The translations under genes were made by a program, and so were the position numbers. Below the pieces are notes generated by a model. It saw only the letters and a list, made by a program, of their open reading frames with translations. It was not told where the DNA came from and did not search any database. Below, one piece after another: positions 1,024 to 61,739 of a stretch of DNA of 64,000 nucleotides. Position 1 is the stretch's first letter. Each line of letters opens with the position of its first letter. Location of the stretch: contig OZ237743.1 in NCBI GenBank assembly GCA_965178125.1, positions 372,001-436,000 on the forward strand, given 5' to 3'. This stretch comes from Bilabrum cf. latius (Eukaryota).

Positions 1024-1254
1024 ATTCTTTCCTAAGTAAATTCTTCCATTACCGCCATCACTGGTAATGAATGGTACACCTTTTCCGTCAGCTTGACTGA
1101 AAGAAATTCCAGCATTGCTTGCCAAGTCTCCATTACCATCAAGTGTTGATATTAAATTAAAACGATTAGTATTTATAATACTATGACCTTGGCAATCTAA
1201 TTGTTTGGCTATATTTAAATAACCGATGGTTGAAAAGGGCATATTATCCGACAT
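1024..1254 (-). pseudogene. Fiber-like virion protein paralog, 3'-truncated by element A
   Basis: N-terminus MSDNMPFSTIGYL matches neighbour MSDNMPFSEIGYL. The frame runs into the C8/G8 terminus and stops 5 codons later. Confidence 0.6.
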
Positions 1255-1283
1255 ATTACAAGACTATAGATTATTTTTTTAAA

Positions 1284-2300
1284 TTAAGGTGGAGCCGATA
1301 TGGGGTCAAGTGGTGTGGGTGGTAAGTTGGCAGCGGTTATATTCCCCATAACTACTAAATTACCATTTGTTAAGTTCAGGCGGAATAAATTAAATTGACT
1401 TAACTTATCAGTTATGCGGATATGGTTATCATCATCACATTCAATGAAACATTTTATATCACCATTGTTCTGAATAGCAATTTGAGAACCGGCTTGAAAA
1501 GTTGTAGCATCAATAAAATTGGCATTTACTATATTATTATTGCCAGCATCATCACCAACAGTTAAAACTTGGGTTAGATTCTGAGGACTTCCACCTCCTC
1601 CCGATTGTGAATCAACATAAGCTTTTGTGGCTACATCCTGAGCATTGGTAGGATTCCCTATATTTACGATTGATTGACCTCCTCCGTCATTTCCTTGATT
1701 TAATACTTGGGTAAGATTCTTATTAGAAGCATTATCAACATATGATTTAGTTGCGGCATCCGTTGAATCTGAGGGTTGTGAGAGGTTTTTGATTTGCTGA
1801 TTTCCCGCATCGTTTCCAACGGTTAACACTTGGGATAGATTCTGAGAACTTCCTCCGCCACCCGATTGTGAATCAACATAAGCTTTTGTGGCTACATCTT
1901 GGTCATTAGTTGGGTCATTGACATCAGTTATTTTGTTATTTCCTGCCGAATTTCCAACGGCTAACACTTGGGTTAAATTTTGATTGGTTCCTCCGCTTCC
2001 ACCTTGTTGAGAATCTACATATGATTTAGTGGCAGCATCCTTAGGGTCTGTTGGTGAAGACACATTCTTTATTTGACCGTTCCAATGAAATTCTACACCG
2101 TCAGTATAATCACCACCGGTTCCTACATTTTTGGATTGTAGTTTAAGTAAGGAGTCTTCTTTAGCCGTTAAATTAAAAGCAAAATTATTACTTGAACTGC
2201 TTATTTCTATATCACCTTTAGTAGATGTATCTCCTTTCACTTCTAATTCTTTGCTTACAGTTAGATACCCTATCTCAGAAAAAGGCATATTATCAGACAT
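1284..2300 (-). CDS. Putative fiber/adhesin-like protein with internal repeats
   Basis: 338 aa; about four repeats of NLxQVLxxGNxAG...PT..xDxATKxYVD with Gly-rich linkers. Confidence 0.6.
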   Translation of the reverse strand: MSDNMPFSEIGYLTVSKELEVKGDTSTKGDIEISSSSNNFAFNLTAKEDSLLKLQSKNVGTGGDYTDGVEFHWNGQIKNVSSPTDPKDAATKSYVDSQQGGSGGTNQNLTQVLAVGNSAGNNKITDVNDPTNDQDVATKAYVDSQSGGGGSSQNLSQVLTVGNDAGNQQIKNLSQPSDSTDAATKSYVDNASNKNLTQVLNQGNDGGGQSIVNIGNPTNAQDVATKAYVDSQSGGGGSPQNLTQVLTVGDDAGNNNIVNANFIDATTFQAGSQIAIQNNGDIKCFIECDDDNHIRITDKLSQFNLFRLNLTNGNLVVMGNITAANLPPTPLDPISAPP

Positions 2301-2338
2301 ATTAATATGAAGTAGATTATTTTTCTAGTCCTTTTATA

Positions 2339-2605
2339 ATGATTGAAACTGTTTTATCTGGAATAGCCATCACTATGACTGGGATATATGCCTTCTATAA
2401 AATTATTAAGAAGGTAAAGAAATCTAATTGCTTGGTAGAAATGGCTGACGGCACAAAATACGAAATAGACTTTGATGATGTGTTGAAAACCCTGGAAAGT
2501 ATAGATGATGTAAAGGAGTTTTCAAAACAAGATATGGATAAAGTTAAGAAAGCCTTTAAATCCTCTGTTGATAAAGTGAAGTCCAAACGAAAAGTTGACC
2601 TCTAA
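2339..2605 (+). CDS. Small virophage protein with N-terminal hydrophobic segment
   Basis: 88 aa ATG..TAA, TCTA motif upstream. Confidence 0.55.
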   Translation: MIETVLSGIAITMTGIYAFYKIIKKVKKSNCLVEMADGTKYEIDFDDVLKTLESIDDVKEFSKQDMDKVKKAFKSSVDKVKSKRKVDL

Positions 2606-2891
2606 ATTATTATCTAATGGTTTTATAATAATGGTTATGAAAATTAAAAAGAAGACTTGTAGTCATAAAGGTAAATGTTCTTGTAATGGTAGCTCCAAGA
2701 AAATGAGAGGAGGCAAAAAAGAACCAACACACAACCAACTGATGAGCATATTCAACGACCTATTACAGAAAGAAAATGTTTTAGACAGATTCAAACGAAC
2801 AAATATTGAAGCTTTAGATAATGTTGATGAATTGTCTGCGAAGGAAAGTCGGGAAGAATACAAAGAAGCTCTCATAAGATTAAGATACATT

Positions 2892-3353
2892 TGATGCCAG
2901 AGTGTACGCGCAACCTAGTCTCGTTAACAATCAGACATGGCAAGACCTGACAAAGCTGTGCCTGTGCGCGACCCTTGACCGGACTGACCGGGGCTGGGAA
3001 GAGCACGTGCACTACTCCGCCGAGGAGGAGGGGGTTGGGAGGGTGGGCAAAAATTACCCAATCTCCGCCCCTCTCCTGAACACAGAGAGGGTATGCGCGT
3101 CATCGCAAGCAATCCGTTGGCTTGGTCGCACCTTCCCGGTCGCAACCGCCATCGGAACCCAACGAGACGTTCACGCGCTCCCACTCTGGCATCAACACCG
3201 AACCCCATCCGGCGTTAGGATCATGATGCCAGAGTGTACGCGCAACCTAGTCTCGTTAACAATCAGACATGGCAAGACCTGACAAAGCTGTGCCTGTGCG
3301 CGACCCTTGACCGGACTGACCGGGGCTGGGAAGAGCACGTGCACTACTCCGCC
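2892..3353 (-). repeat. Ngaro-1 B2-A2-B1 split-repeat block
   Basis: 130-bp B copies at 2892-3021 and 3224-3353; 174-bp A copy at 3050-3223 matches 8588-8761. Confidence 0.95.
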
Positions 3354-3393
3354 AAATCTTACCGCCATGTCTTGTACGCTGCGGCTGTGTGGC

Positions 3394-4480
3394 TCACTCC
3401 AAGTTCAGCCGCAGCGCGCTGGCCAGCACCCACACTGGCCTGTTCAAATCGAGGCTCCTGCCGCCGAGCTCCAGAGGAGGCAAACCTTCCCTGACGCCCC
3501 GCAAGTACACCTCGCATGCAGATGCCGACTTCCATCTGCCAAATCGCCTAATGACCTCGAAGGCGACCCCAGCACGGTCCAAACACATCACTGCCGCGAT
3601 GCGGATGGAATGTCCGTGCACCGCTCCTGCAACTTCTCGTGAGCAGAAGCTGCGGAGCGCCCGTACTACCTGCGCCTTGACGATCGGCTTCGTGTTCGCC
3701 ACGAAGACTGGCCCTGACGTGGGGCAGCTGAGCGCCAGCTACCGGGCGTAGTCTTCGTCTGCGCCTGCAGTTGGGGCGTGGCTCGCTGCTGCCCACGCCA
3801 CGAAGGCTCGCACGCCGCAGAACCTGCTGCCTGTGACTGCCCATCGTCCGGCTCTGCAATGGACTGCGATGGGCTCTGCGGCTTGGATGGAGAACTTGGC
3901 TGGGCCGTCGGCTTTGTGGAGGCCCAGGCGGATGGCAACACCATGGATGCGTCCGTCTCGCGTGATGAACTGCACTTGCTGCCATTGGAGGCCGGCTTGT
4001 CGTCTGGACGCACCGACGAGCTCTCCCAGCCGGAGGCCCCCACAGAAGCAGAGACAGACAGCTGTCCGAGCAGCCTACTCTGTTGTGCTGCAACCGGCTG
4101 TCGAGAAGCACCGTCGGATTGCGCGGAGTGGGGCTGAAGATCGACGCAACGGGTGCGCCGATGGCGATGCTTTGTGGTAGTACCGGAGGATGCTGTCGAG
4201 CTAGCTTGACCGTGGGACGCCGCACGCTCCTGTGGACTCGATGACGACTCGCTAGGCATTTCTGGTGTATGTAGCGATGGTGCCGCCACTGAGAGGCGAA
4301 CATTCCCCTAAGAAGACTGCGAATCTCGAGAGCGCTGCATTGAGCCTGAACGCGAAGAGTCTGCGAGCTGCTGGAAGATGCCCGTCCATGAAACTGCGGT
4401 CGATGTCGTACCACGTGAGGAAGTTGTCGAAGTGCCCCCACGCCGTGCGCAACCCACTGAGTCCAGAGTGGCCACCAGCG
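3394..4480 (-). CDS. Tyrosine recombinase (Ngaro-1); start uncertain
   Basis: ORF pieces 4252-4452, 3739-3975 and 3394-3702 share one frame and are joined at TAGs. Motifs HSIRIAA and FGRWKSASACEVY; ends TGA. Confidence 0.85.
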
Positions 4481-7400
4481 TGAAATGGTCGTGCTTGTAC
4501 AAGGTGTTCCAGATCGGCGTGGGACAGTCGACCTGATACACCGCGTCCAGGTGCGTGTATGCCTCCTGTGAGCCGCGGCTCAAAGCGTCCGCAACGACGT
4601 TGTCCTCGCCAGGAATGTGTTTCACGTGAATCTGCACATCTTGCGTTGTCTGCAGTACGAAGATAGGGCGAAGTAAGGCTGCCATGATGTGGCTCTTGGG
4701 TCTGCCGTAGCGTATCAGCTACACGGAAGCATCATTATCACACCACAAACGCACCACACGTGCACGCAGGTGCTGTCGCCAATGCGCCAGTGCCAACAAA
4801 CATGTTGCAAGTTCTGCCGCCGCTACATCCTTCGCCTCTAGGCGATGCGGCCAAGTGCCCTGGATGCCGGTGTGCGAAGTGATGTTGCCGTCCTTGTCGT
4901 GGAGAAGCAGCTCGGCGCCGTAGCCTGTCACCGACGCATCAGTGCGAAGGATGGGACAGTCAATGGTGCCCCGCATCGGAAAGCTGCGCCCGCCTTTGCG
5001 CTGGATAGCCACCTGGAATCCCTCGAGGATTTCCCCAACTGTGAAGCCACCCTTGGACACAAAGGAGGTGGGGACCCACACCTCACCTGGTCGTGACCGG
5101 CTGGCCTACTTGTGAAGGGCCCAGCCCTTGGCGTCATACAGGGGACGTAGAGCACCGCGCATACCATAAAGTGCGCCCGACAGGAAGGACAACTTGCCGA
5201 CCAAGGTCTCAAAGCTAGACAGCAGCATCCCCTTCGTCGTGAGTGCCTCGTGCAGTCTGCGCAGGACGTCGTTGGCCTTGTCCTTAGGGCACCGCACCTC
5301 GTGTTTGATCAAGTCGTAGGTGAGGCCCAAGTACTCGAACACCGGGGCTGGGGGCCCTTGCTTCAATGCTTTCGAGATGCTGACGGGGAAGTTTGTGGAG
5401 TCCAGCTGCCCCATGGCTCGAATTGCCCATGCATCGACTTCGTGATCTCCGCCGAGGCAGGCAAAGTCATCTACAAACACCTCATTTTCGACCTACCAAT
5501 GGCGGGACTAGTCTTGGGCCGTCTTGACATGTCCCGTTGTCGTGCTAGCGGCAGGCGGGGTGGACGTTGCTGACGAGTTCGCCTGGGGCGCCTGGTCCGT
5601 CGTGCTGGATTGGGCGTTGGCGTGCTGCTGCTTCCGGCGTCGTTGCTTCTGCTTGTGTCTCCGTCCGGGTCGCATGGCCCTGCCAATGGACTGCTCCTCG
5701 AGGGCTTGGGCCAAAGCCGAACTGATCGTAGTTGCGAAGGCGGGAGATGATGAGCTGCCCATAGAGAGCCTGAAATCTTGCACGATGCGCCCGTCGGGCA
5801 GCTTGATCAGGTTGTATTGGAGATCCTCCACTGCCACCGGCAGGACCCGAAAGTACGAGGAAATGTCGACGACGTATCCGCTGGCACGCTTGGGGCAGGA
5901 TCGAACTGCTGCGGCTGCCGAGCGCAGCACGTCCATGCTGCTCGTCTGCTGCACAGGCGTGGCTGCACTGTAGTCGATGGCCTTGTTCAGACCGGTACGC
6001 TGGCCGTTCACCTTGAGTGAGGAGTCCTGAAGGAACCGTAGCTTTGTCGAGTCCTTCTTGGGGATCACCAGCGGCCGGGCCCGGGCTGTGTCGAAATCTT
6101 TGGGTGACACGAAGTCACGCTCGCCAGCCCGCATGGAGCGCCCGATCTCGCAGGCGATCTCCCACTTTTCTTCCGGAGACAGCTTACGGTCCTTGTAGTC
6201 TAGATCGTGCTCTTTGGGCACCTCGTCCACGATGGCTAGGGGGCAACCATAGTTCAGTGCTGCCAGTACACGCTCGACTCGTGGGAGGGCTTTAAACTCG
6301 GCAAGGGACGGGGCCTTCCTCGGTGTGCGGCCGCCAAACAGAACCTCCCGCCGGGTCCGCAGTGTTGCAGTCTAGCGAGGCACCTTGTCGAAGTACTTGC
6401 GTGGCGTGAATGCCAGCGGGTCGTCGTGAACCTTCAGGTGGAGCCGCTCACGGTCCCACGTCGCAGCTGGAGCCTCCACGAATTCGCCGGGACATTCTCT
6501 GGTACGCTGGTGATCGTCCTTTCGCTGTATGAAGTCCTCGACGGAGGGTGCTGTCGTCCCTGCCCACTCATGGCTTGGATCCGGAGCTGGATATGCCCAG
6601 TCAACGAATGCTGGAGAGATGTCCGTCCTACCTGGCAGCCTCGTGGATGACGCCGTGGGCGGCCGCTGCGGTCGCTTAGGGCGCGCTAGGGCCACCAGGA
6701 CTGGGTGAAGCGCGGGCGTTGACGTGACAGGTGGTGTGGAAGCAGCACACGCGTCCGATGTGGTGGTAGTCTGCGTACGCCCCTGCGGCAGTGTTGGTGT
6801 TGGAGTGCTGGGCTGGCTCTGACGTGACGTACCTCGTGGGGGGGGGTCAGGTGAAGGCTCCTTGGACTTCCTGGTGGAACCCCCGTCCTGCCGGTCCGCA
6901 CGCTGGTGCTGGCCACCTTGCTGGCCTGCACCGCCACGTCCACGGCCTCGACGGTGTCGACCTCCGCCACGATCGGCACTGGGCTGGTCGCTGTCACCCC
7001 CGCTGCGCCTGGAGCCTCCACTGCCCCCGCCTCCACTGCCCCCGCGGGGGTCGAAGTGACGGGACAGTGCTGCTCGACGGGACGGCGCCTGCATGTCAGC
7101 CTGGACTCCCTGTAGCAGTCCGCGCACGAGGCCAGGTTCGCCTGATCTGCATGCCTCAGTGGCCCACGGATGCAGCAATTGTAGGAGACGCATGCAGTCG
7201 CCAGAAGAGCACGAAGGAATCTCATTCCCAACAAGGTCACGAATCTCAACGTCACAGCGTTCGCCTGTATGGCGCCAAGCATGGGAGGAGAGCATCTCAA
7301 AGGCTGAACTTCCGCGTGGTATCACACACACAGCGGCAAACACCACCTCTAGTCGGGACGCCGATGCAGATGATGCCCCGGAAGCACTAACCAAACGAAG

Positions 7401-8108
7401 AAAATCATTGCGAACCTGCCCCAGGGTTTTCCAATCGGGCACTAGTGATGCTGGACACGACCACGAGCTGCTGCCCTGCGGCAACCAGGACGGCAAGGGC
7501 GCCGTCGAATGCACGCAAGCAGCGCGCACGAGCACACAGCCTAAAGCAAAGGAAATAGCCGAGTAAATAGTGCATAGTAACTCGCTAGATGGCACCTACT
7601 TTTCTCGTCCGCCTGCAGCAGACGACTCCGAGTTGGACGCATCAAACTTCCCAAAACTGGCATTGCTCATCGGCAGAGCTGCATGAAGCCGGCTCGTGAA
7701 CGAGAAAATAGCCGATTCAATCTTGGCTCTCGTCACGGCCTGACCAAACAGGGCACGGGCCAGTTCTGCAGCGAAATCGCGGCCGCTAGCGTCCAAATGA
7801 AGCGCGTCAGCCTAGCAAAACCGCGGCATGAACGCGGATTGGCGAAAGATCGAGGTCAACGTTGCCAAGAAATCATCAGAAAACCAATTCTGCATTCGAA
7901 TTGCAGCGATTGAAGGTGCAGAGGCCTCACGCTACAAAATCTCCACTGGTTGCGAGCGAACGACCGCGGAGTCCACTGCCGTGCCTGCGCCCGGTGAAAC
8001 TGGGTCAATTGAAGACGCAGGCTGCGGTGAGGCAGAAGATGACACAGGAGGTTCACGGGGTGGCTGATGAGCGGGTGTAGCGTCGACCGGTGGCGGGGAT
8101 GAGTGCAT
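3588..8108 (-). CDS. Gag-like/RT/RNase H polyprotein (Ngaro-1), one frame under TAG=Gln
   Basis: All track fragments from 8279 to 3666 are one frame broken only by TAG. RT motifs KLRFLQD, VDISSYF, LSMGSSSSP, FVDD; RNase H motifs TDAS, AELA, CDN, NVVADALSR. First in-frame ATG 8108, frame open from 8591. Confidence 0.85.
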
Positions 8109-9348
8109 CGAGGCTGCTAGTCGGTGCGAGAAGTACCATTGCAATTCCACGTGGGCGGAGAGGTGCGACAGCAGCTCTTCCTGGCGCAGAGTCGGAATGC
8201 TGTGCCACAGCGCAAACAGGCGTAGATGCAGAATTGTCGCTGGGTCGGCCGTTCCCCGCAGCGTCGTGGAGTGCAACACTGCCCGTTGGAGATCCCCAGG
8301 AAGGCGGCCCCAGACCGCGTCAAGCTAGCGGCTGGTGCCCGGAGTCACGCCGGGGGAGTCGTAAGCCGGAGACACACGAGGAAGAAGAAGCTGAGGGCCT
8401 GCCGGGCCCGTTGACCGTGATGCTGCACTGCTGAGCGCCTCCGCGAGCACTGTCGGATCGCCGAAGTCCCGAGTGCCTGGCCTACCGGGGAGCCTGCCCG
8501 AGGCAGGTGGAGGTTGGTGCCGCGGGGGTGAAGACGTTGAGAAGTTGGGCTGTCCGCTGCGCTGGGTATCTGCTGCTGTCCCCGGGGAAAATTACCCAAT
8601 CTCCGCCCCTCTCCTGAACACAGAGAGGGTATGCGCGTCATCGCAAGCAATCCGTTGGCTTGGTCGCACCTTCCCGGTCGCAACCGCCATCGGAACCCAA
8701 CGAGACGTTCACGCGCTCCCACTCTGGCATCAACACCGAACCCCATCCGGCGTTAGGATCAGAAAGCGAGAAAGATAATTTGCTCAAAAATACAATAAGT
8801 GATTCTAATCAATCACGTAATGAACTGATGCGAATGTTGAAAGAAGTTCTGTCAATCTATAAGAAACCTTTAGAATCCACTTTTAAAGCCAGGCTTCGTG
8901 ATAAACTTAGGGTCTTAATGAGGAAACTAGAAGAAAAAGATGGTAGTTTTCCAGACAACCCGAATGGGGAGAGGGCAACACGTTTGGTTTTGGATATGTC
9001 ATACTTGATTAATAAGGTTTTAGAAGTAGGAAGAGACATAGATTTTGAGGAACTAGATGAAAGAACACTGAACGAACCTGACGACCGAGATGAATTTTCA
9101 ATCAGAAGAATTGAAAGAGAGCAAAGACTGAGAGAAAACCCAGATGATGACTTTGGAAGAGCATTGAATAGACTACAAGGCAGAGGCAAACCCAAATACA
9201 AGCCAAAAAATGCGATGAAGTCCAAAGTAATGAAAATTGCTTCTCAACTACAAAAGAAGCACGGCTACAACAAGTCCAAAGCCCTAAAACTAGCATACAA
9301 AGTTATGAAAGAATAATTTAATGAGCAATGTATCAATTACTGATTAAA

Positions 9349-9957
9349 TTATTTGAACCCCAAATATTCTTTAGCCCTTCTATCTAATTCCTTTATGAAC
9401 TTCTCTTCATTGTATTTGTCAATCCTCCGTTTCAATTTATTGTTATTGTTAATGAACTTCGTTAGGTTATCCATAGGCTTCCCCATCAATTTCAGTAGAC
9501 TCCGAAACCGTTTCAAGAGCTTGTAGAATTTGCCTTCTGAAAGCAACTCTTCCATTTCTTCTTTTAGTGTTTTGACATACTTAGATTTAGGTGGAAGACC
9601 TCCCATAAAGAAATTATTCGTTATCTCCATTGGTCTGTCTCCCTCATACAGGATGTATAAGTCTAACTTGATGGTTCCTTTTAGGTTGTTCTTAATCCAA
9701 TTCCTCTTTTTTACGATGTCGTTCAACTTGTTGAATTTCATTTCATTTGTTTTGAACTCACTGAAAAATATGTTTGGTGGTAGTAATTGAATGTATTTAA
9801 TTAAGGCACTGACAAAACTGGAGGGAGAACCTAACCAAACTTGATTAAAGTCTATGTCGGAGAAGTATTTCAAGCTAGGGTCAGTATAAGAACCGACTAT
9901 AAAGGAATCTTCAGGCTTTCCAAGACTAATTACTTCACGGATGTAAGTTAAATCCAT
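9349..9957 (-). CDS. Putative nucleotidyltransferase (Pol beta-like fold)
   Basis: IVGSY...FSDIDF (GS..DxD) motif and a later KLDL strand. Confidence 0.55.
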   Translation of the reverse strand: MDLTYIREVISLGKPEDSFIVGSYTDPSLKYFSDIDFNQVWLGSPSSFVSALIKYIQLLPPNIFFSEFKTNEMKFNKLNDIVKKRNWIKNNLKGTIKLDLYILYEGDRPMEITNNFFMGGLPPKSKYVKTLKEEMEELLSEGKFYKLLKRFRSLLKLMGKPMDNLTKFINNNNKLKRRIDKYNEEKFIKELDRRAKEYLGFK

Positions 9958-9984
9958 ATTATTATCTAACCTGATATAATAAAA

Positions 9985-10710: not shown

Positions 10711-10730
10711 AATTATTCTAAGCTTGTTTA

Positions 10731-11156: not shown

Positions 11157-11732
11157 TCAGAATCCGTATTTCTCGTAAAACCAGAGGCAAATCATCTCAT
11201 CAGGTTTCAGCTGTCGTTTAAGACATTCATTTATGACCCATTGCTTAAACTCATCTATTGATTTATTCTCATATACAGCAAAAGCAACCGCCCAGCGACC
11301 GCAGGTGTTAATACCATTTTCTAACCTTTGATAGTCTGTCGTATTTACATTAATTGTATATCCTTCTCTTCTCAACTTATTCATTAAGTCCATAAGATAA
11401 GGTCTTTCTCTCAAATGACTTGTTATTGTGCCTTGATATTCGTCAAATTGTTCTTTTAAAGTGTCTTCACCATATGAATCACAAATATCAATCTCATATT
11501 CGGAGAGATGACGTAGGCATATCCAATGCCCAACAGAAGTATTTCCTTCCAGTTTAGAGGTATACAACATAAATGTGAAGTTTGGGAGAGCCCCAGAGTC
11601 AAATAATTGTTTGTGGTTCTTTACTTTTCTAATTTGATTATGCTTTATAACTTTGGCATATGGAAATAGGGTTTTGAGGTCATTTCCTGAAAGCATATAT
11701 TCCATTAAGCTTTTCATTTTAAGATTGTTCAT
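11157..11732 (-). CDS. Virion maturation cysteine protease (adenain/Ulp1-like)
   Basis: GHW...DSYG...YQ...TCGRW catalytic motifs. Confidence 0.9.
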   Translation of the reverse strand: MNNLKMKSLMEYMLSGNDLKTLFPYAKVIKHNQIRKVKNHKQLFDSGALPNFTFMLYTSKLEGNTSVGHWICLRHLSEYEIDICDSYGEDTLKEQFDEYQGTITSHLRERPYLMDLMNKLRREGYTINVNTTDYQRLENGINTCGRWAVAFAVYENKSIDEFKQWVINECLKRQLKPDEMICLWFYEKYGF

Positions 11733-11757
11733 TTTATATTATCTAACTTGATATAAT

Positions 11758-12828
11758 ATGAATTTTATGCCATTAACAACAGGTAAAAGTATTGATTCCA
11801 GTGATGAAGTATATGTTGATTTGGAATTGTATAACCACAGCGGGAGACCAATCCTTCAGAAGTTCACGAGGAATTATGATGTTCCAATTGTAGATAAGGC
11901 TAGACTTTATAAATTGAGTGTAGTAAGATTTTTAATTGATGCTTCATTGTTCCCAATTAGAATTGTTGAAACAACAAAACAAAACGATGTCAATGAGATG
12001 AAAGAATCTATTACTGTAGAATATGACGGAGAGAAACAAACCGTGAATTTAGAATGGGTTCCACAAGAAAATAGTGCTCCTGTCCCTTCTCAACTAAACC
12101 CTCAGGATATCAGAAGCAGTTATTATTATTTGTATGACTTCCAACACTACCTTAATATCTTAAATACTGCTTTATCAACTGCTTTCCAAAATTTATCTAG
12201 CACTCCACAAGGGGCAACAGCTCCGTTCTTTAGATTGAATATGAGCAGGAAAACCTTTGAATTGGTAGCCGACTCCAACTATTATGACGAATTCCAAGTC
12301 CAAGACCCAATTTATGTGTATGTGAACGAATATCTAGCCAACCTTTTAGATGGATTCAGTTTCATATATGGAGATGAAACCTCTCCCGATTATGCCCGAT
12401 TCATCATACAAGACACAAGCAATAATAAAGAAGATGATAATTTAGTTATGACAAGCTTGAATTCTGTTCTTGCCAATTACAATATGCTTAAAAGCCTTAT
12501 CATTACATCAAACTTATTGCCTTGTCAAGCTGAATTTATTAGCACCAACGGAGAATTTAACCAAGACACCACATCAGGAACAGGGAACCAAAACGAACAG
12601 TTATCAGTTATAACTGATTTCGTTGTTCCTGATGATTTTGTATCAGATGTTCGTAGATACGAATATTTACCAACTGCTCAATATAGATATGTGAGTATGT
12701 TAAGCGATAGCAAAATCCAAAACATTGACCTATCAATTTATGCCAGAGGTGAGTATGGGGAAATTTATCCTTTATATTTGAGAAGCGGAAGATTTAGCTC
12801 TATCAAACTATTATTCCAAAAAATCTAA
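11758..12828 (+). CDS. Minor capsid (penton) protein
   Basis: 356 aa beta-rich; YKLSVVRF, PTAQYRY and SIKLLFQK motifs typical of virophage pentons; lies next to protease and MCP. Confidence 0.8.
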   Translation: MNFMPLTTGKSIDSSDEVYVDLELYNHSGRPILQKFTRNYDVPIVDKARLYKLSVVRFLIDASLFPIRIVETTKQNDVNEMKESITVEYDGEKQTVNLEWVPQENSAPVPSQLNPQDIRSSYYYLYDFQHYLNILNTALSTAFQNLSSTPQGATAPFFRLNMSRKTFELVADSNYYDEFQVQDPIYVYVNEYLANLLDGFSFIYGDETSPDYARFIIQDTSNNKEDDNLVMTSLNSVLANYNMLKSLIITSNLLPCQAEFISTNGEFNQDTTSGTGNQNEQLSVITDFVVPDDFVSDVRRYEYLPTAQYRYVSMLSDSKIQNIDLSIYARGEYGEIYPLYLRSGRFSSIKLLFQKI

Positions 12829-13163
12829 TCCCTCAGGTTTAAATTGAATCGTTCAAGGTAATCATTAATTGATGCTTCTAATGTAGGCTTATTCCAAAGG
12901 ATATACCAAGACAAACTACCCGGAGATAAGAAGAACTTAATATTGTCCTTCTTATGTCTAGCTCTATAAGATTTTTTAACCTTTTCCCTGTCTTTCTTGT
13001 CTGGTAGGTAAAATTTAGACTCAGGATTATTGATGAGTGTATAATCTCGATAGCCCTCAGCTCCGAAATCAGAAGTATATATCTTTTCATTGTCGCTGTA
13101 AAAGGTAGCTCTGAATTTCTTTCTTACATTTAAGCTAGGTTCAAACTTAACTGATAAATTCAT
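12825..13163 (-). CDS. Small conserved viral protein (FG..GY.DY...YR.RH...S..ILW family)
   Basis: 112 aa; homologous to the element C gene at 59802-60086; apparently ends at TAG overlapping the penton TAA. Confidence 0.7.
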   Translation of the reverse strand: MNLSVKFEPSLNVRKKFRATFYSDNEKIYTSDFGAEGYRDYTLINNPESKFYLPDKKDREKVKKSYRARHKKDNIKFFLSPGSLSWYILWNKPTLEASINDYLERFNLNLRD

Positions 13164-13210
13164 TTTATTATAATCAATTAGAATAATAAAATGATTAAAC
13201 CTACTTTAAC

Positions 13211-15055
13211 TTATTGAAGCATTTTCATTAATTGGGCTTTGGTCATCTTGCTTGATGATTTTTTAGCGGCTGCTGTTTTACGAGGACGACCGGGTTTACG
13301 GTTTTTAGTTGCTGGTCTTCCTCTTTTCTTGCCACCAATTACGGGAGCACCACCGATTGTACCAAGCCCGACAGCATTCATTCCAGAAACTAAGCCTTTA
13401 GCATAAGGGTGTGGAACCATACTAGCGAGAGCCTTAACTGGTTTGGCTACTGCTTTAGCGGTGTTGTATACTTTCTTTCCGGTGTTGTAAGCCTTTCGTA
13501 AGAAAGAACCTACTTTCCTGAGGTTAAAGCCTCCAGACATATTAGCTTCAAATTCTACGGCATCAGCTTGGGGTAAGCTATTAGCTTGTAATACATCAGC
13601 TTCGTTGAAGAGAGGGCTGTAAAGTTGAGTTTGTGAGTTATTAGATATACACATCATACCATCATATACAACGATAGTGTGTAGTTCTAAGTTGTTCATT
13701 TGGACTTTACAGTTGTAATCTAATTTGAAGCTGAAGTTAAACTTCCCAGAAACACCAGGGGCTAATTCTTCATTGAGAGAAAGCTCACGGGTGGGCAAGA
13801 ATAACACAGAACCACAGCCTTGAGTGAACTTTTGGTTTCCTTGGTCGTCTTGGGTAAATGCGAAATACCTAGATGCGAATTCAGAGAAAGTCATATCTAA
13901 ACCAGCTTGAGAAGAGATTTCATAGAGCTGTTCTTGGGTAGCGGTTGATAAGATACCGGTTTTGTTTCCAATATTTACCACACATTGGGATATTTCAGGG
14001 TATCTGTCAGCTGGTCTTGTAATTGTTTGGTCTCTCTCTTTTAGGAATACGGCAAACATATGAGGCATACCCTTTAATTGGATAGTATTGGATTGGACTG
14101 TATGACTTCCGACATTTCCTGATACTCCAGATTGGATGTGTGGGTCTAAATCGTAGTAAGGATAGCAAGCTATAGGCTGACGAGGAATGGATAAAGGAGG
14201 AGTAGCATAAGCTACGAGTAATTCAACAGATTCCCAATCAACATTATTTACTTGGAAGGCAGGAGAACCAGCTACTGGGTTGTGCGACATTAAGAAGCTT
14301 TGAGGGTCAGGCATCCAGTTAAGTTCGATAGTCATTTGTTGAACATTTTCCAAGAAAGAAACATCATCAGATTCACCAGACCATAGAGCACCAGAGAATA
14401 GAGGTTCGCTTACATCGTATACTAATTGTCCGTTTTGGGCAGCCCCACCAGCAGGTAAAGCGGGATTGTATGAAGCCTCAGAACCTTGAGGAGCAACACC
14501 AGCAAAAGGACGGATACCAAAGGCACCTCTTCCCCTGCGATAACTATCACCTACACCGAGAACATTTAACGAAGCCAAGTCCTCATCAAAGTTAAGAGTA
14601 TTATCCACACGGGACACAGTGGTAGAGTTTACACCATCCCAAGTCTCTACAGAGTTTTTGGAACGAATGAATAAATCTAAGTTTTGGTTATTTTGGTTGC
14701 TTGTTTGAGAATCATTGATTCTGACATTACAGGATTGAATCAGACGATTGACTGGGTAAGATTGGATAGCATCACTTGCGTGAGTAAAAACACGGCGTCC
14801 ATTTACACCAGCACCGGCTTGTGCGGAAGCTTGAATTCTTAATCCATTAATACGGACTTCAATGCGACGAGACACTAAAGCACCGGATGGCACATTGATA
14901 GTAAATTGGGCATTGTTTAAACTGTTAGGACTTCCATTTGGTTTGATGGTAGTATAGGTCAATTCGGTAGGAGACCGATAGACGGCTAGAGAAGCTTCAG
15001 TTGGACGGATTCTTTGGTCTACAACTTGTACTTTGTTTACATTAGCTAGAGACAT
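13211..15055 (-). CDS. Virophage major capsid protein (double jelly-roll)
   Basis: 614 aa, beta-rich; TQEQLYEIS and LAPG motifs; MSGG followed by a basic C-terminal tail (likely protease-cleaved). Confidence 0.88.
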   Translation of the reverse strand: MSLANVNKVQVVDQRIRPTEASLAVYRSPTELTYTTIKPNGSPNSLNNAQFTINVPSGALVSRRIEVRINGLRIQASAQAGAGVNGRRVFTHASDAIQSYPVNRLIQSCNVRINDSQTSNQNNQNLDLFIRSKNSVETWDGVNSTTVSRVDNTLNFDEDLASLNVLGVGDSYRRGRGAFGIRPFAGVAPQGSEASYNPALPAGGAAQNGQLVYDVSEPLFSGALWSGESDDVSFLENVQQMTIELNWMPDPQSFLMSHNPVAGSPAFQVNNVDWESVELLVAYATPPLSIPRQPIACYPYYDLDPHIQSGVSGNVGSHTVQSNTIQLKGMPHMFAVFLKERDQTITRPADRYPEISQCVVNIGNKTGILSTATQEQLYEISSQAGLDMTFSEFASRYFAFTQDDQGNQKFTQGCGSVLFLPTRELSLNEELAPGVSGKFNFSFKLDYNCKVQMNNLELHTIVVYDGMMCISNNSQTQLYSPLFNEADVLQANSLPQADAVEFEANMSGGFNLRKVGSFLRKAYNTGKKVYNTAKAVAKPVKALASMVPHPYAKGLVSGMNAVGLGTIGGAPVIGGKKRGRPATKNRKPGRPRKTAAAKKSSSKMTKAQLMKMLQ

Positions 15056-15253
15056 TGATATAACAAGCTAGAGATTTTTATTTTTTGGCTTCTTAAAATC
15101 ATACCTTAGGGTAATTATGGGTTAATTTCCGATAATTTAAATTGAATTTAAACTATTTTTAAATAGTTTTTAATTATTTATTTCCCTTGGTGGCTCTTCG
15201 TAGAATTAAATTAAAATTCAAATTAATTAATTATTAATTCATTTAAATTCATT

Positions 15254-15790
15254 TCAATTATTATTTCCAGCTAGTGATTTTTTCTTCAATCTGTTTAATT
15301 TCATTTGTAATAATCGCTTATCCTTGTTCTTTTCATAGTATGCCTTTTGATATGCTAGTTCTTTGTATTTGTTGTTGATGTAATATTGCTTTTTGTATTG
15401 CTGTAGATGCTCTTTGTTTTCCATCTTCCATTCCTTTTGATTACGGGAAGGAATTCGTTTATTCACACACTCAATATTTTCCATTTGCTTAAATTTCTCT
15501 ATGTAGTACCGTTCTCTCTTGACTAGTGGTAGTCTAAAGCTGATTTTGTTTTTATCCAGTTCTATTTCTTCAATTAAACTTATTTCGGGTTCTCCTGTAT
15601 GCTGAAGTATTTCATAAGAGCTACAACAGCCTTTGCCTTCCGGATTCTGTAAATAGTTTTCATAGTTAGCCATATGAGAATACAATCTACCTTTTAAGCT
15701 GTTGGTGGTGCTTCCAATATACATTTTTTGTGGTGCCTTTGGTGAAAATAACTTGTAAATATATCCTTTGATATACTGATTAGATGTCAT
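15254..15790 (-). CDS. GIY-YIG endonuclease
   Basis: GYIYKL...YIGST...RL..H...RE.YYI motifs. Confidence 0.85.
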   Translation of the reverse strand: MTSNQYIKGYIYKLFSPKAPQKMYIGSTTNSLKGRLYSHMANYENYLQNPEGKGCCSSYEILQHTGEPEISLIEEIELDKNKISFRLPLVKRERYYIEKFKQMENIECVNKRIPSRNQKEWKMENKEHLQQYKKQYYINNKYKELAYQKAYYEKNKDKRLLQMKLNRLKKKSLAGNNN

Positions 15791-15845
15791 ATATAAAGCT
15801 TTAGAATAATTTTTATGAATTGCTCCCCTAGATATTAAACCCTAT

Positions 15846-16286
15846 TTATTTGATTAGAGGTATATTGAAGTCTTCTACAATGTGATTATCAATTTTACGA
15901 CTAGCTCCATTTAACAGAACTGAATACAATCTTGCTAATCCCCAAGACCTAGCAGATTGGTTGGGTCTGCTTCCGCTGGAGAAGTAAGCACCTTGACCTT
16001 TATTTATGATTCGGGCAAATCCTTCCGCTAGTTCTTTGAATCTCTTCTTTTTACCATTTGATAATATAAAGGCTAATTCTAAAGGCGATACATTGCCATA
16101 AATTGCTTTTATTTGTTTTGTATAGGATGATGGTTTGCTTTCAAAATTTGTTTTAGGTCGTTTCTCATTCGTTAGGAAGCTCAACAACTGTTTTTTAGTG
16201 TCCTCATAATTCAAACCTTCCGTGTATGTTCTGGGGATTCTTTTATAGGTATTAAATAGTTCAAGTAAATTTTCTTTCTTACTCAT
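15846..16286 (-). CDS. Conserved giant-virus-type hypothetical protein
   Basis: KGQGAYFSSGSRPNQSARSWGLARL motif, recalled from NCLDV proteins (not database-checked). Confidence 0.6.
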   Translation of the reverse strand: MSKKENLLELFNTYKRIPRTYTEGLNYEDTKKQLLSFLTNEKRPKTNFESKPSSYTKQIKAIYGNVSPLELAFILSNGKKKRFKELAEGFARIINKGQGAYFSSGSRPNQSARSWGLARLYSVLLNGASRKIDNHIVEDFNIPLIK

Positions 16287-16448
16287 ATTAATATATGGAC
16301 GATAAAAAAGATAGAAAGCTAATAGAAGAGTTCAAGCAACATATGAATAAATTGAAAGTGAAATTTGATTTAGTTAAGGTATCCGAAGGCATCTATAAAG
16401 CAAGAAAGCCTTTAGTATGTCATCGTTTTTAAAATCTGATGGTATATA

Positions 16449-17993
16449 ATGAATTTCAATAAACTGAAATCTCTTAAGTGTGATGAACTTAGGGGTATTT
16501 GTAAAATGCTGAAAATTAAAGGATACTCCAAAGCAAAAAAAGCTGACTTGATGAAAATGATTAAGAATGAACTAGAAGCAGAAACGAAAGGTGGAATTAA
16601 TTTATTCAAGGGTATTCGGGACGGAGTCAAAGCAATCGGAGATACATTAAAAGATGTATTCGGTCCTGACCTGAAGAACTTCAACCCATCTGTGAGAAAG
16701 TTATTGAGTAGGTATGGCGATAGTAAAATAAGGTCATTATCTATTGCTAGAACTCCAGTCAGTAAAACTTTACAAGGTGCTGTAAACTTTATTTCCAAGA
16801 ATGGATTAGAGAAGGCAAGACAAAAATATGCCTACGATGACCTCTACCATCTGGCTTTAGTCGTTGAATTAGAATCTGGAAAACGGTTGACCATAGAAAA
16901 GAATGAAATCGTAAGTATATCAGAAGGAGCACCAGCAACAAGTAGAACAGAATACAAACCTGTTAGATTAGTCTATAGTATGGGAGGATATACCTTAGAT
17001 AAAATGCTAAAAGCTACTCTTGACAAGGTGGGGCGAAGACGGTTTTTCTTTTATGATGCTTTCAACCAACGGGGAGGTGGGAACTGTCAACAATTCGTAA
17101 TGGATGTATTAAAGTCAAATGGGTTGCTTACGGAGCCATTAAAGAAGTTTATTTATCAAGATGCTACTGGAATCGGTAAAAGCTTGGGTTCAAGGTCTAG
17201 GGGTATTGCTAGAGTAGCCACAGATACAGCCGGATTTATTAGAAAGGCTATAGGCAGAGGGAAAAAAATGGAAGGTGGAAGACACGGACGAGGTCGCCAG
17301 AAGGTAAAAGATTTCTTTAAGGGCTTTAAATATGGCTTCAATGAATCCGCTTCCAAATTCGGAAGACCAATAGCTAAAACATTTAACAAGATAACAAAAG
17401 ACCCTTTCACTGGAGCATACTTGGAGCTTACCAAGAAATTAGAAGGTAGTGGAATGTTCAGGGACTTAATGAAAGATGTAATCAAACAAAATGAACTATT
17501 GCTTCCAATCAAAAATATAGTTGGGCATCATAAAGTAAATAAAGGTATTGATAGACTAACTGATAAGGTATTCGGAAAAGGTAAAGGAGATGAAACAACA
17601 GCACCAACAAAAGCAAAAAAGCTGACAACCGCACCAAAGGTTTCAAAACGATTAGATGAAATAAAAAGAGAAGCAAAACAACAAACAGAAGATATTAGAC
17701 AACAAGCAATCAACGATTTAAATGACTGGGGAATGTACTACAAGTCTATTGGCGACCCATATACTGATTTTGAAAAAGAATATGGGTCTGAACCATATGT
17801 ATCAGCGAGGGGGTTGAGAAGTTTTAGCAAGAGTTCAGGAAGGTCGTCATCTAGTATGGGACTTCCATCCTTCTCAAAACTAGCAAGAATTGGGTCTGCT
17901 TATATTATAAAAGATATGATAGGACTTGGGAAAGCATCTAAACTAACCAAGAAGGATTTAGCTCTGGCTAGAAAAATACGAGACTCACTCTAA
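16449..17993 (+). CDS. Virophage protein with N-terminal helix-extension-helix-like domain and permuted papain-like (H...NC) domain
   Basis: LKCDELRGICKMLKIKGYSK; LYHLAL...IEKN...YDAF...NCQQFV; basic GG/GxG-rich C-terminal half. Confidence 0.6.
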   Translation: MNFNKLKSLKCDELRGICKMLKIKGYSKAKKADLMKMIKNELEAETKGGINLFKGIRDGVKAIGDTLKDVFGPDLKNFNPSVRKLLSRYGDSKIRSLSIARTPVSKTLQGAVNFISKNGLEKARQKYAYDDLYHLALVVELESGKRLTIEKNEIVSISEGAPATSRTEYKPVRLVYSMGGYTLDKMLKATLDKVGRRRFFFYDAFNQRGGGNCQQFVMDVLKSNGLLTEPLKKFIYQDATGIGKSLGSRSRGIARVATDTAGFIRKAIGRGKKMEGGRHGRGRQKVKDFFKGFKYGFNESASKFGRPIAKTFNKITKDPFTGAYLELTKKLEGSGMFRDLMKDVIKQNELLLPIKNIVGHHKVNKGIDRLTDKVFGKGKGDETTAPTKAKKLTTAPKVSKRLDEIKREAKQQTEDIRQQAINDLNDWGMYYKSIGDPYTDFEKEYGSEPYVSARGLRSFSKSSGRSSSSMGLPSFSKLARIGSAYIIKDMIGLGKASKLTKKDLALARKIRDSL

Positions 17994-18026
17994 ATAATTA
18001 AATTATGGAAATAGACTATAATTTAA

Positions 18027-19160
18027 TTAATTTTCGTATTCCGGAGTTTCCTTTATATCAACTGGGAACAGTCCCGTGTTATTGTTTCTCTCTGGATACT
18101 TGGCTTGGAATTCCGTTCTTAATCGTTCCATTTTCCCCTTATCGTATTTCTTGATGAGTTCGCTCCAAGGCTCATAATTTCTATCTTTGCGGTTCTTGTA
18201 TTTGACTAAGTAATATATCTTGCCTTTGTGTTTGGCTTTGTCTTGGAACTCCACAGGTATAAACTTAGTTTGGGCTCCATCTGGTCTCTCATTTGGTTTT
18301 ACCTTTTGAAGCTCTGATTTATGATAAACGGCATTGTTAATGCCTTCTATTTTATATAACGGAGGAGCCCCAGGTTTAATTATGACGAAATCAACCTTTC
18401 TTGGCTTTGGGTCAAATCGTAAATCGCCAGCTCTGAATTTCCCGTGGAGCCTTTTACTTCCAATTATATCCTGCGGATAATCATAAGGAACTCTAACGAC
18501 ATCTCCTTTCTTTAATAATATACATCCCGATTTATCACACCTTGGAGGCTTCAATTTATTATTGGGCTTCTTGTTTTTGTTGCTTTCGTTGTATGCTTTA
18601 ATTAGGATTGGGATTAAATATGTCCATTCTGTATCTCTCTCCTTGTTATTTATCTCATTAGCATTTTGAACTATATAGATACCACGACCAATAATGTAAT
18701 TAAGGTATTCTGCGAGTGCTTGCTGTTTGCTTCTGCCTACTTTCCCGACTCGTAAATACGTGTTTTGCTTCTCAAAATACCGTTTCACTTCTCCTTTAAA
18801 TTCTGTGCCGTCATCAATTTTTAACATTGACGGTGGTTTTAATGGTTTTCTAATACCTAGTTTATTTCGTTTGGTTGTGCTTCTTGAGAATATCGTTTTG
18901 AATGCTTTCAATACCTCTTTGGTGGTTTTGGATTTTAGTGGGACAGCATCAGCTATTCTTGCTTCATCTACATATGATAACACATATTTAAAACCTTTAT
19001 CATCCGGTAAAAATAATAAATCGGCTTGAGCTGTATCATTTGGCGGTAGTATTGGCAGATGTCCTTCGTTGTCTCCTCTGGGTCTTTTTGGTGGTTTCAT
19101 CAGCTTGTCCACAAGCGAATTTTTAGTCAGTCCTAATGATTCTAAAACTTTTGAATTCAT
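18027..19160 (-). CDS. rve integrase with C-terminal chromodomain-like region
   Basis: QADLL, IDDGTEF and LAE give the DDE triad; YYLVKYK...YEPW tail. ATG at 19160. Confidence 0.88.
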   Translation of the reverse strand: MNSKVLESLGLTKNSLVDKLMKPPKRPRGDNEGHLPILPPNDTAQADLLFLPDDKGFKYVLSYVDEARIADAVPLKSKTTKEVLKAFKTIFSRSTTKRNKLGIRKPLKPPSMLKIDDGTEFKGEVKRYFEKQNTYLRVGKVGRSKQQALAEYLNYIIGRGIYIVQNANEINNKERDTEWTYLIPILIKAYNESNKNKKPNNKLKPPRCDKSGCILLKKGDVVRVPYDYPQDIIGSKRLHGKFRAGDLRFDPKPRKVDFVIIKPGAPPLYKIEGINNAVYHKSELQKVKPNERPDGAQTKFIPVEFQDKAKHKGKIYYLVKYKNRKDRNYEPWSELIKKYDKGKMERLRTEFQAKYPERNNNTGLFPVDIKETPEYEN

Positions 19161-19643
19161 TATAAACAACCAGATAAAATAATTAATAGCAACATCTGAC
19201 ACATAGTTCCCGTTTTGTGGTTCCATTGTTTGGTAGATGCTATCAGTTGGGAACACACCCTCCCACCTTGCTAGAATCCATTCACTAGCCGTGATTTTCG
19301 CCAAAAAAAAATGGAGCAGCTGCCCAGCACACCACCAGACACACAACACAGCCGACAAAACCTGTTCAAGTAGATGATTAAATTTTAACTTGAAATACTT
19401 TTATAGTGTGGTGTCGTGTTAAAGTGTCAAGAAATGAGAAGGAGACATCAGGAGAATCCATTTGATGGAGAGGCTCTCGCCCCTATCGGGACGATGACCC
19501 TCTCACTCGTAGATGGGAAGGTCGGAAGGAGAACCAGTAGATGGAACCACGAGAAGAAAAGCCGTAAGGCTTTACTTCTCTATCATTGGCGACAAGGAGT
19601 AGAGATTTATCTCTGCTCTGCCGTCAGCCGTCGGGGGGGGGGG

Positions 19644-61710: not shown

Positions 61711-61739
61711 TTTTGGTCAAACTTTTTATAAAAGTTTCT

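Follow-up and report, generated by a model that had tools for sequence, protein, structure and literature searches.

The window analysed here is a stretch of 64,000 nt from Bilabrum cf. latius (assembly GCA_965178125.1, contig OZ237743.1, positions 372,001-436,000 of the forward strand). Three elements, designated A, B and C, lie in it (Table 1), and one of them, B (1025-19643), is genuinely a virophage of the Sputnik type. The first-pass annotation had given B the range 1024-19643; the virophage is indeed there, but that range also includes a host retrotransposon (2891-8771), and base 1024 still belongs to A, as its final nucleotide. The B DNA analysed therefore consists of the low-GC parts 1025-2890 and 8772-19643, with a total of 12,738 nt. 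Sixteen tightly packed ATG-to-stop ORFs were counted in it under the standard code, in place of the approximately 14 genes first proposed. Summed by their coordinates, these ORFs span 11,601 nt or 91% of the DNA of B, and all 15 that are not truncated are intact.

Table 1. Features of the three elements and of the insert in B (window coordinates)
Feature	Position	Strand	Remarks
A, integrase, N-terminal part	2-427	-	Pfam rve, E 3.6e-10; runs off the left edge of the window
A, right terminal non-coding region	430-1024		ends ...TTGACCCCCCCC at 1024
B, left piece	1025-2890		4 ORFs, two fibre-like and two small
B, truncated fibre-like ORF	1006-1254	-	last 6 codons and stop inside the terminus of A
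B, fibre-like ORF	1284-2300	-	internal repeats (D4-D6)
B, small ORF	2339-2605	+
B, small ORF	2631-2894	+
Ngaro/DIRS-type tyrosine-recombinase retrotransposon	2891-8771	-	5.9 kb, ~60% GC; host element
B, right piece	8772-19226		12 intact ORFs, zero in-frame TAG
B, putative packaging ATPase	9985-10710	+	Walker A CSGAGKT; 36% identity to the ATPase-like ORF of C, E 2e-43
B, cysteine-protease-like ORF	11157-11732	-	27% identity to C ORF 60081-60737, E 3e-15
B, penton (minor capsid) protein	11758-12828	+	Pfam V18-19, E 1.8e-15; TAA stop 12826-12828
B, DUF5754 ORF	12825-13163	-	Pfam DUF5754, E 1.8e-7; TAG stop 12825-12827
B, major capsid protein (MCP)	13211-15055	-	Pfam MCP_V20_C, E 4.4e-25; Sputnik_MCP_1st, E 1e-14
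B, accessory gene	15254-15790	-	GIY-YIG-like by eye
B, accessory gene	15846-16286	-	Pfam DUF5824
B, accessory gene, 514-aa ORF	16449-17993	+	Rho_N/SAP-like N-terminus (Pfam)
B, integrase	18027-19226	-	36% identity to the rve fragment of A, E 8e-23
B, right terminal non-coding region	19227-19643		ends in a run of 11 G, then host DNA
C, recoded virophage	58403-64000		34 in-frame TAG over 6 ORFs, one of them protease-like and one ATPase-like; runs off the right edge of the window

The MCP of B scored 88.5 bits for MCP_V20_C (cut-off: 27) and 54.7 bits for Sputnik_MCP_1st, and matched Sputnik V20 (3j26) at E 2.9e-22 and the mavirus MCP at E 4.4e-8 when compared to the PDB. It has 1647 database relatives, the best of which is 43% identical and aligned end to end. 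The penton protein scored 57.1 bits (cut-off: 27). The sole Pfam match of the putative ATPase was weak (AAA_22, 0.0036, below cut-off), the integrase itself matched no Pfam family at E 0.01, and a Pfam search with the protease-like ORF gave no match, its GHW and TCGR (His and Cys) blocks aligning with those of the C ORF in a catalytic assignment made by eye. Homologues of the DUF5754, DUF5824 and 514-aa ORFs are found together on the IMG/VR contigs L068 and L006. In the left piece, a match to a 163-aa protein of C is weak (E 0.037), and the C protein runs 93 aa longer.

The insert that divides B carries the features by which Ngaro/DIRS elements are defined, i.e. RT/RNase H (ORF 3588-8108, minus strand; RVT_3 match of 27.8 bits, above cut-off), a tyrosine recombinase (ORF 3394-4389, minus strand; weak Phage_integrase match, 1.2e-4 and 22.3 bits, below the cut-off of 27.1) and split direct repeats (8588-8771 = 3050-3233, 98%; 3224-3353 = 2892-3021, 100%). 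On the minus strand these repeats are arranged as A1-[ORFs]-B1A2B2, the scheme quoted for Ngaro retrotransposons in PMC8547959. The ORFs of the insert hold 10 and 4 in-frame TAG codons, and its insertion point is the extreme 3' end of B ORF 2631-2894. At its left end B is cut within a gene (1006-1254) by the terminus of A; B was in place before this event and before the Ngaro insertion. The terminal region of A (439-887) resembles the left terminal region of C (58588-58950) in inverted orientation with 71-76% identity, and other copies of it end alike (loose ends at 989). On the right, the DNA aligns from ~19634-19644 on with paralogous flanks in the host (50682, 42020 and 57598), which places the junction of B with the host at ~19643, and the left boundary of C lies where host similarity to 41922-42815 stops, at 58402.

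It is extremely improbable that B is a contaminant or a free virophage misjoined to host DNA by the assembly. Beyond the junction of B with the host (19643) the listed contigs do extend by just 28 nt, where 31 nt are needed for a bridge. However, a host-coded Ngaro lies inside B, its right junction is bridged by contigs of two studies with 0 differences, and the A-B junction is bridged, again with 0 differences, by a contig of the second study (956-1629).

Host ORFs of 1256-2546 aa in this window stay open only if TAG is sense. Five high-GC host or retroelement ORFs contain 38 TAG, 41 CAA and 148 CAG in 5042 codons, the 6 ORFs of C contain 34, 32 and 11 in 1246 codons, and the integrase fragment of A contains 4, 6 and 3 in 142 codons. 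Judged by these reading frames, the genome uses TAG as sense. Its meaning is most likely Gln, which is the commonest partner of TAG in paralogue alignments (15 of 58 aligned cells, 12 of the 15 being CAG); the TAGs of A and C sit within conserved blocks opposite polar residues of B, with Gln at 3 of 15.

The 16 ORFs of B have 3851 sense codons, of which 123 are CAA and 23 CAG, with in-frame TAG, TAA and TGA all at zero. As a share of Gln-type codons, TAG amounts to 44% in C (34/77), 31% in A (4/13), 17% in the host (38/227) and 0 of 146 in B. At the rate of C, B should contain approximately 105 in-frame TAGs, and at the rate of the host approximately 29; the probability of finding none among 146 Gln-type codons is ~1e-37 at the C share and ~1e-12 at the host share. 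TAG and CAA are nearly equal in C, as expected for compositional equilibrium in AT-rich DNA, whereas in B they stand at 0 and 123. With 23 CAG codons in B and TAG read as Gln, zero TAG bounds neutral C-to-T change per CAG site at <~0.12 at 95%. Since the other two frames of these coding strands contain 166 TAGs, the absence of TAG from B is limited to the reading frame. The count of TAG, CAA and CAG suggested in the first-pass annotation thus upholds its central observation, that a virophage open under the standard code and without internal TAG lies beside recoded ones in a host that also uses sense TAG.

A rarely used codon could in principle produce the same pattern, if UAG were decoded by a scarce suppressor tRNA and B, expressed in a burst, shunned a slow codon. 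The modest TAG share of the host would agree with this; nevertheless we consider it very unlikely, as A and C use TAG for 31-44% of their Gln-type codons, the ATPase and protease included, and total absence over all codons of B is characteristic of a stop codon and not of a rare one. No tRNA gene was found in the 64-kb window.

The stop codons of B are TAA in 11 ORFs, TGA in 4 and TAG in 1, in agreement with the earlier remark that nearly all its genes end in TAA or TGA. Two of the TGA stops (1006-1008 and 2892-2894) come from foreign DNA at the junctions, so that UAA and UGA account for 13 of the 14 native stops. Both codons also serve as stops in A and C and hence still terminate in this host, from which it follows that 15 of the 16 B ORFs would be translated exactly as in the standard code. 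Reading TAG as Gln alters a single ORF, 12825-13163 on the minus strand, which becomes 12765-13163 and grows from 112 to 132 aa. As had been noticed, its TAG interlocks with the TAA of the penton gene in CTAA (12825-12828); read-through adds 20 aa, down to 12765, and creates a 64-nt overlap with the penton gene. The proposed comparison of C-termini was carried out, and 11 of 11 homologues of the DUF5754 protein end within ~3 residues of the terminus that TAG defines in B. The 20-aa extension is present in none of the 11, including one from an environmental assembly that is 81% identical to the B protein. A TAG stop at the family-typical C-terminus indicates that UAG was a stop codon when the genes of B took shape. 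Taken together, the lack of in-frame TAG and a TAG terminator at a conserved protein end identify B, by its coding, as a standard-code genome. There is no support for the suggestion that B shuns UAG terminators, because in three standard-code virophage contigs the ORFs that end in TAG number 0 of 16, 4 of 11 and 5 of 15, and the 1 of 16 in B falls inside this range.

The upstream regions also separate B from A and C. Of the 16 B genes, 13 have TCTA in the 35 nt that precede them (background: 0.164, P 2e-8), usually 14-20 nt ahead of the ATG, and none of the 7 A and C genes has it there; an ATAGTA-type motif precedes 4 of these 7 and none of the 16 B genes. Three other virophage contigs have TCTA upstream of only 3/16, 3/11 and 5/15 ORFs. 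In PMC8547959, TCTA is equated with the late promoter of CroV, and differing motifs are taken to mean differing giant viruses. The contrast seen here suggests that B and A/C may have different helper giant viruses. The AT-rich TCTA motifs, of the kind known as late promoters from CroV and mavirus, would drive the B genes, which would then be expressed only on infection by a giant virus of that promoter type; A and C, with another upstream motif, probably respond to another helper virus. With the motif contrast, code status can be linked to giant-virus partner in a way that is open to testing.

We favour the reading, at a probability of roughly 55%, that B is an endogenous Sputnik-type virophage of a UAG-stop lineage which entered a UAG-sense host later than A and C. 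Its lineage would have evolved with UAG as a stop codon and reached this host lineage late relative to the recoded elements. The nearest database relatives of B, called full-length under standard-type codes (MCP 43%, DUF5754 81%), agree with this, although the result is biased toward standard-code relatives, since database proteins are predicted with TAG as a stop and recoded relatives are fragmented and missed; a standard-code host of a B relative was not identified. Special adaptation would be unnecessary, as a standard-code genome is without in-frame UAG by definition, and the DUF5754 protein alone would differ from its form in a standard-code cell. The code barrier would then work in one direction: a UAG-sense host is open to standard-code virophages, and A and C, with 31-44% TAG among their Gln-type codons, could not leave such hosts. 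Default compatibility of a standard-code virophage with a UAG-sense host, and from it a one-way barrier, is the simplest reading of the locus.

The first-pass annotation had called B a recent immigrant. For this locus "recent" is doubtful, given that B predates the Ngaro and A-terminus events and that diverged B-like copies exist. B-like sequence which is 86-97% identical and rearranged, with a different gene order, occurs in the sequencing run of another organism, and the run of B itself contains a second B-like variant (C>T at 16955 and 16973 at about half depth; a joint of 17265 to 18318). Diverged copies and a second variant imply that the B lineage is established in this host group, and a longer stay there would mean that its zero TAG needs selection and not merely a short time. 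B might therefore be a generalist kept free of UAG by selection, shuttling with a broad-host-range TCTA-type giant virus between standard-code and UAG-sense protists; in-frame TAG, lethal in standard-code hosts, would be purged from it, and A and C would be locked to UAG-sense hosts and another helper virus. We regard this as possible but less likely. The diversification of B-type sequences alongside zero TAG in the one copy that was read, a promoter motif unlike that of A and C, the environmental source of the closest DUF5754 homologue and the single TAG stop are consistent with it. Yet a divergence of 3-14% is too small for significance, as approximately 1 TAG event is expected from 23 CAG codons. 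The single TAG stop is moreover ordinary among standard-code contigs, and its loss would be expected in a true generalist. No second host is known for B. If B is selected to be UAG-free, the locus would hold two stable viral answers to the code barrier, each with its own giant-virus partner, an outcome that we consider rather unlikely.

B could also be a dead-end passenger, integrated once by accident, never expressed or replicated here and too young for decay, in which case its code status would be uninformative on strategy. The copy at this locus is truncated on the left and has a retrotransposon in it, and among the genes recognised in the 12.7 kb of B that was read there was none for replication (primase, helicase or polymerase). 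The intact, densely coding ORFs argue against such a fate, as do the B-type variants, more than one within a run and diverged ones in the run of another organism, which imply repeated integration and hence replication in these hosts. Overall, this explanation appears improbable.

Stop-codon reassignment is a frequently proposed defence of a lineage against viruses and mobile DNA. By their codon usage, viruses of two genetic codes share one locus here, which would make it a natural test of the code-change-as-shield idea in a eukaryote. The lineages of A and C have fully adopted the UAG sense codon of the host, and expression in a standard-code cell would no longer be possible; B, whose coding is still that of the standard code, has integrated and persisted at what would be almost no cost, a 20-aa tail in one of 16 genes. 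This suggests an asymmetric barrier, in which standard-code viruses are not kept out and adapted ones are trapped inside.

A full-text literature search found no paper on recoded virophages or on virophages of differing code in one host. Phages with stop-codon usage unlike that of their hosts have reportedly been described by Ivanova et al. in 2014 and Borges et al. in 2022. As at this locus, virus and host or co-infecting viruses there use different codes, and the code acts as a barrier or regulator. Those phages are bacterial and usually bring suppressor tRNAs or release factors, whereas here the eukaryotic host is recoded and the non-recoded virus is the odd one out.

Cafeteria has the standard code. 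The EMALEs of Cafeteria burkhardae, as described in the available portion of PMC8547959, are like B in being AT-rich virophages in a GC-rich protist genome with several types adjoining, in having an rve integrase and TCTA in one type and other motifs in others, and in housing a GC-rich tyrosine-recombinase retrotransposon of ~6 kb with the same repeat scheme as the insert in B. That portion does not describe a code difference, while here the host, A and C read TAG as sense and B does not; the capsid of B also scores nearer to Sputnik V20 than to the mavirus MCP. In PMC6905037, an ochre-suppressor tRNA on a virophage contig is taken to hint that the host has reassigned a stop codon, which likewise ties a virophage to hosts of that kind. 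In the text available of that report the hint is a lone tRNA for UAA, and neither recoded coding sequences nor co-resident elements of differing code are reported. With Sputnik-type virophages B shares a V20 MCP and a V18/19 penton above the Pfam cut-offs, and a putative ATPase/protease module adjoins these genes in B. It differs from them in its integration into a eukaryotic chromosome with an rve-type integrase and TCTA motifs, and in that the 12.7 kb read showed no replication gene; this rve-family integrase, the host junction and the candidate TCTA late-promoter motif are the traits of integrating, mavirus/EMALE-like virophages.

Element B, one of three virophage pieces in the window beside A (cut by the left edge) and C (cut by the right edge), comprises 12,738 nt of DNA proper, 91% of which is coding. 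Its 16 counted ORFs, where the first-pass annotation had estimated about 14, hold no in-frame TAG in 3851 sense codons, in keeping with the earlier claim of over 3,500 codons open under the standard code, and use CAA and CAG 123 and 23 times. The same coding strands carry 166 off-frame TAGs; TAG is therefore missing in B only where it would be read. The usage of C (TAG 34, CAA 32 and CAG 11 in 1246 codons) would predict about 105 in-frame TAGs in B, and that of five host and retroelement ORFs (38, 41 and 148 in 5042 codons) about 29, which places their absence far beyond chance.

The GC content of the window is ~57-62%, with three low-GC islands (1 to ~3000, ~8800-19600 and ~58400-64000). With TAG taken as sense, the high-GC DNA yields ORFs of, for example, 1256, 1481, 1506 and 2546 aa, each containing 10-18 TAGs in frame, a set that includes subtilase-like and second-gene paralogues (three of each), a LINE-like reverse transcriptase and retroelements with a tyrosine recombinase; TGA serves as a stop in 5/5 of the host and retroelement ORFs counted. 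In alignments of host paralogues, Gln is the commonest partner of TAG (15 of 58 aligned cells, 12 of them CAG, which is one transition from TAG), followed by Arg (10 cells) and Glu (5). Because TAG faces Gln most often, we read the host as decoding TAG as sense, with Gln the most likely amino acid. A search for tRNA genes found none within the 64-kb window. The ORFs of C, among them a protease-like one and an ATPase, are open only if TAG is sense and end in TAA (four) or TGA (two). Mobile elements are very dense at 24771-39939.

Coordinates of features in the window
Feature	Position	Strand	Remarks
A	1-1024		Right end of a related element; rve integrase fragment with 4 TAG
Short GGGAAA-type repeats in A	439-585		Common to the C left terminal region
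C8 run	1017-1024		Exactly at A right end
B DNA proper	1025-2890, 8772-19643
ORF at B left end	1006-1254
338-aa fibre-like gene	1284-2300
ORF at Ngaro insertion point	2631-2894
Ngaro-type retrotransposon	2891-8771	minus	~60% GC; non-virophage
DUF5754 ORF	12825-13163	minus	112 aa
AT-rich palindrome	15203-15250		In the 200-nt gap between B MCP and GIY-YIG-like gene, the longest intergenic gap within B
G11 run	19633-19643		Exactly at B right end
LINE-type reverse transcriptase ORF	24771-32411	plus	2546 aa; 18 in-frame TAG
Second retroelement with tyrosine recombinase	32694-39939	plus	ORFs 32694-35324, 35325-38690, 38527-39939
Host segment of ~110-130 nt, four copies	19634-19762, 42020-42126, 50682-50810, 57598-57704		Conserved; the first copy adjoins B
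C	58403 to window end
G7-8 run	58403-58410		Exactly at C left end
C left terminal repeats	58998-59608		Tandem/dispersed direct repeats of ~50-330 nt, 72-100% identical

Judged by its proteins, B is a genuine virophage. Pfam searches identified the Sputnik V20 major capsid protein (MCP; two domains) and the V18/19 penton, and the MCP scores closer to Sputnik V20 than to the mavirus MCP, with 1647 relatives in a representative library (best identity 43%). The putative ATPase and the protease-like ORF of B are 36% and 27% identical to those of C, and its integrase is 36% identical to that of A. The range of 1024-19643 first assigned to B stands as virophage except for the Ngaro insertion, a retrotransposon: its RT/RNase H ORF has 10 TAGs and its tyrosine-recombinase ORF, with a Pfam score under the cut-off, has 4, and its split direct repeats follow the layout A1-[ORFs]-B1A2B2. 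It entered at the extreme 3' end of an ORF whose stop codon it now supplies. The left end of B also falls within a gene, of which the final six codons and stop are encoded by the A terminus; a weakly similar protein of C (E 0.037) extends 93 aa beyond. Since the A terminus is complete and the B gene is cut, B likely integrated first and the Ngaro and A-type elements later. The left arm that B lacks here, probably together with its replication gene, may lie beyond A, outside the window.

The terminal region of A, which reads ...TTGACCCCCCCC up to its last base at 1024, matches the left terminal region of C in inverted orientation, and a search for terminal inverted repeats found no match elsewhere in the window for the right terminal region of B. 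The left boundary of C is sharp, in that likeness of the host DNA to a paralogous stretch breaks off exactly at 58402. Homopolymer runs lie at three element ends; for C, the paralogous empty site at 42815 is without such a run, and the G11 of B may be partly host, as paralogues carry GGTGGGG. The conserved host segment adjoining B recurs 3' of every unit in the subtilase-like/second-gene paralogue array, and C sits ~700 nt from another copy; this repeated region may be favoured by virophage insertions.

The stops of B are, as first noted, nearly all TAA (11) or TGA (4, two of them supplied by foreign DNA at junctions). The single TAG ends the DUF5754 gene and interlocks with the TAA of the convergent penton gene in CTAA, just as the first-pass annotation described. 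Reading TAG as Gln alters only this ORF among those of B, adding 20 aa, in agreement with the length predicted earlier; the tail would be antisense of the penton 3' end. Against a large protein collection the DUF5754 protein had 11 homologues, one 81% identical, and none has anything similar to the 20-aa tail. As all 11 end within ~3 residues of the TAG-defined C-terminus, we infer that UAG acted as a terminator while the genes of B were shaped. In this host the protein would most likely carry the extra tail, the sole predicted cost of the code mismatch for B.

The first-pass annotation had also offered, as one of two readings, that B avoids UAG, which its stops do not show: TAG ends 0/16 ORFs in a standard-code virophage contig of 27% GC and 4/11 and 5/15 in two of 44-45% GC, beside which 1/16 in B at ~35% GC is unremarkable. 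Avoidance inferred from the near-exclusive TAA and TGA stops was accordingly rejected, and stop usage is uninformative on whether B is an immigrant or a generalist. C uses TAG about as often as CAA, as expected at the compositional equilibrium of AT-rich DNA under TAG=Gln, and B deviates from it maximally. With 23 CAG and no TAG, the neutral C-to-T change accumulated at each CAG site since the lineage of B became subject to this code is bounded at <~0.12 (95%), comparable in order of magnitude to the 3-14% by which B-type copies diverge. We favour, at a probability of roughly 0.55, the reading that B belongs to a standard-code lineage that would be compatible by default with a UAG-sense host, and that it came later than A and C, with its TAG drift still to come. 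The codon data fit equally well a generalist that replicates in standard-code hosts as well and is for that reason held TAG-free by selection; we consider this distinctly less probable, and the retained TAG stop argues mildly against a polished generalist. A dead-end passenger, selection on codon speed or an artefact share the small remainder. The original observation of a UAG-free virophage beside recoded ones thus stands, and its interpretation as immigrant or generalist is supported in part.

The two code states at the locus coincide with two promoter types. TCTA set in AT-rich sequence occurs in the 35 nt upstream of 13/16 B genes, mostly 14-20 nt before the ATG (background chance 0.164 per 35-nt stretch; P 2e-8), and of 0/7 A and C genes; in three unrelated virophage contigs it precedes 3/16, 3/11 and 5/15 ORFs. 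ATAGTA stands directly 5' of the ATG in 4/7 A and C genes (background 0.036; P 5e-5) and in 0/16 B genes. The motif of mavirus is TCTA, which corresponds to the late promoter of CroV, and EMALE types with other motifs may need other giant viruses, as described in PMC8547959. By the same logic, the differing motifs suggest that B and A/C are probably activated by different helper viruses.

Searches with the MCP and DUF5754 proteins found no close relative of B, and no match gave host or code information. The MCP gave one match at 41-43% identity in a word-index search, no close relatives in a 'shorter' search or, as a single protein, in IMG/VR, and no match in a phage collection; a four-sequence MCP alignment found one locus (26% identity) in IMG/VR and none in metagenome contigs. 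Scans with the DUF5754 alignments listed 80 loci each, and the best multi-gene relative among the loci listed was contig L086, with 6 common genes at 24-50% identity. DUF5754 homologues are frequent on giant-virus-sized contigs (many named GVMAG, among L002-L081), and they recur together with homologues of DUF5824 and a 514-aa ORF on small contigs (L068 and L006 among them). These three genes of B may be shared with giant viruses.

Eight public sequencing runs were listed, of which four (X1, X5, X6 and X7) were examined; no RNA run among those listed held B. B is identical (0 differences) in contigs of two studies. X5 record 10 bridges the A-B junction, and X1 record 6 and X5 record 13 bridge the right Ngaro junction; at the B-host and left Ngaro junctions the contigs listed extend just 28-30 nt beyond, the bridge threshold being 31 nt. 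The best B-holding run has a second variant at about half depth, with C>T at 16955 and 16973 (both third codon positions, among the differences listed inside B), and a joint connecting 17265 to 18318, and in a second-study contig the B right terminal region is flanked on both sides by unlike sequence. A third organism's run (2019) holds rearranged joints, two B-like MCP pieces (16 differences in 469 nt; 11 in 302 nt), two other B-like pieces (46 in 385 nt; 33 in 243 nt) and A-like pieces (42 in 311 nt). Such variants, rearrangements and diverged pieces across runs indicate that B-type elements are a small family established in the host group, not one stray insertion.

Contig depth in X1 is ~23 over the left piece of B (995-2918) and ~44-50 over the right (8736-19225), reflecting either a second copy of the right piece or a left arrangement found in just a fraction of the genomes. 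A joint (1282>2339) in X6, a run of another organism, shows a diverged B-like element with 20 other letters in place of the fibre-like gene. The first 86 nt and promoter of this gene repeat those of its neighbour (repeat D5), and it resembles a duplication or insertion particular to the lineage of B.

The most useful result is conceptual: a UAG-to-Gln host would be almost freely open to an AT-rich standard-code virophage, and adaptation to such a host would be a one-way street. Full-text literature searches returned no account of recoded virophages or of different-code virophages in one host; the nearest item was a single ochre-suppressor tRNA reported on one virophage contig (PMC6905037). The closest known system is that of Cafeteria, in which, as described by Hackl et al. 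(PMC8547959), the Ngaro layout occurs inside one in four endogenous virophages. Common to both are a GC-rich protist genome that houses adjacent AT-rich virophages of several types, a Ngaro element inside one virophage and type-specific promoter motifs, and what this locus adds to that picture is the genetic-code dimension.
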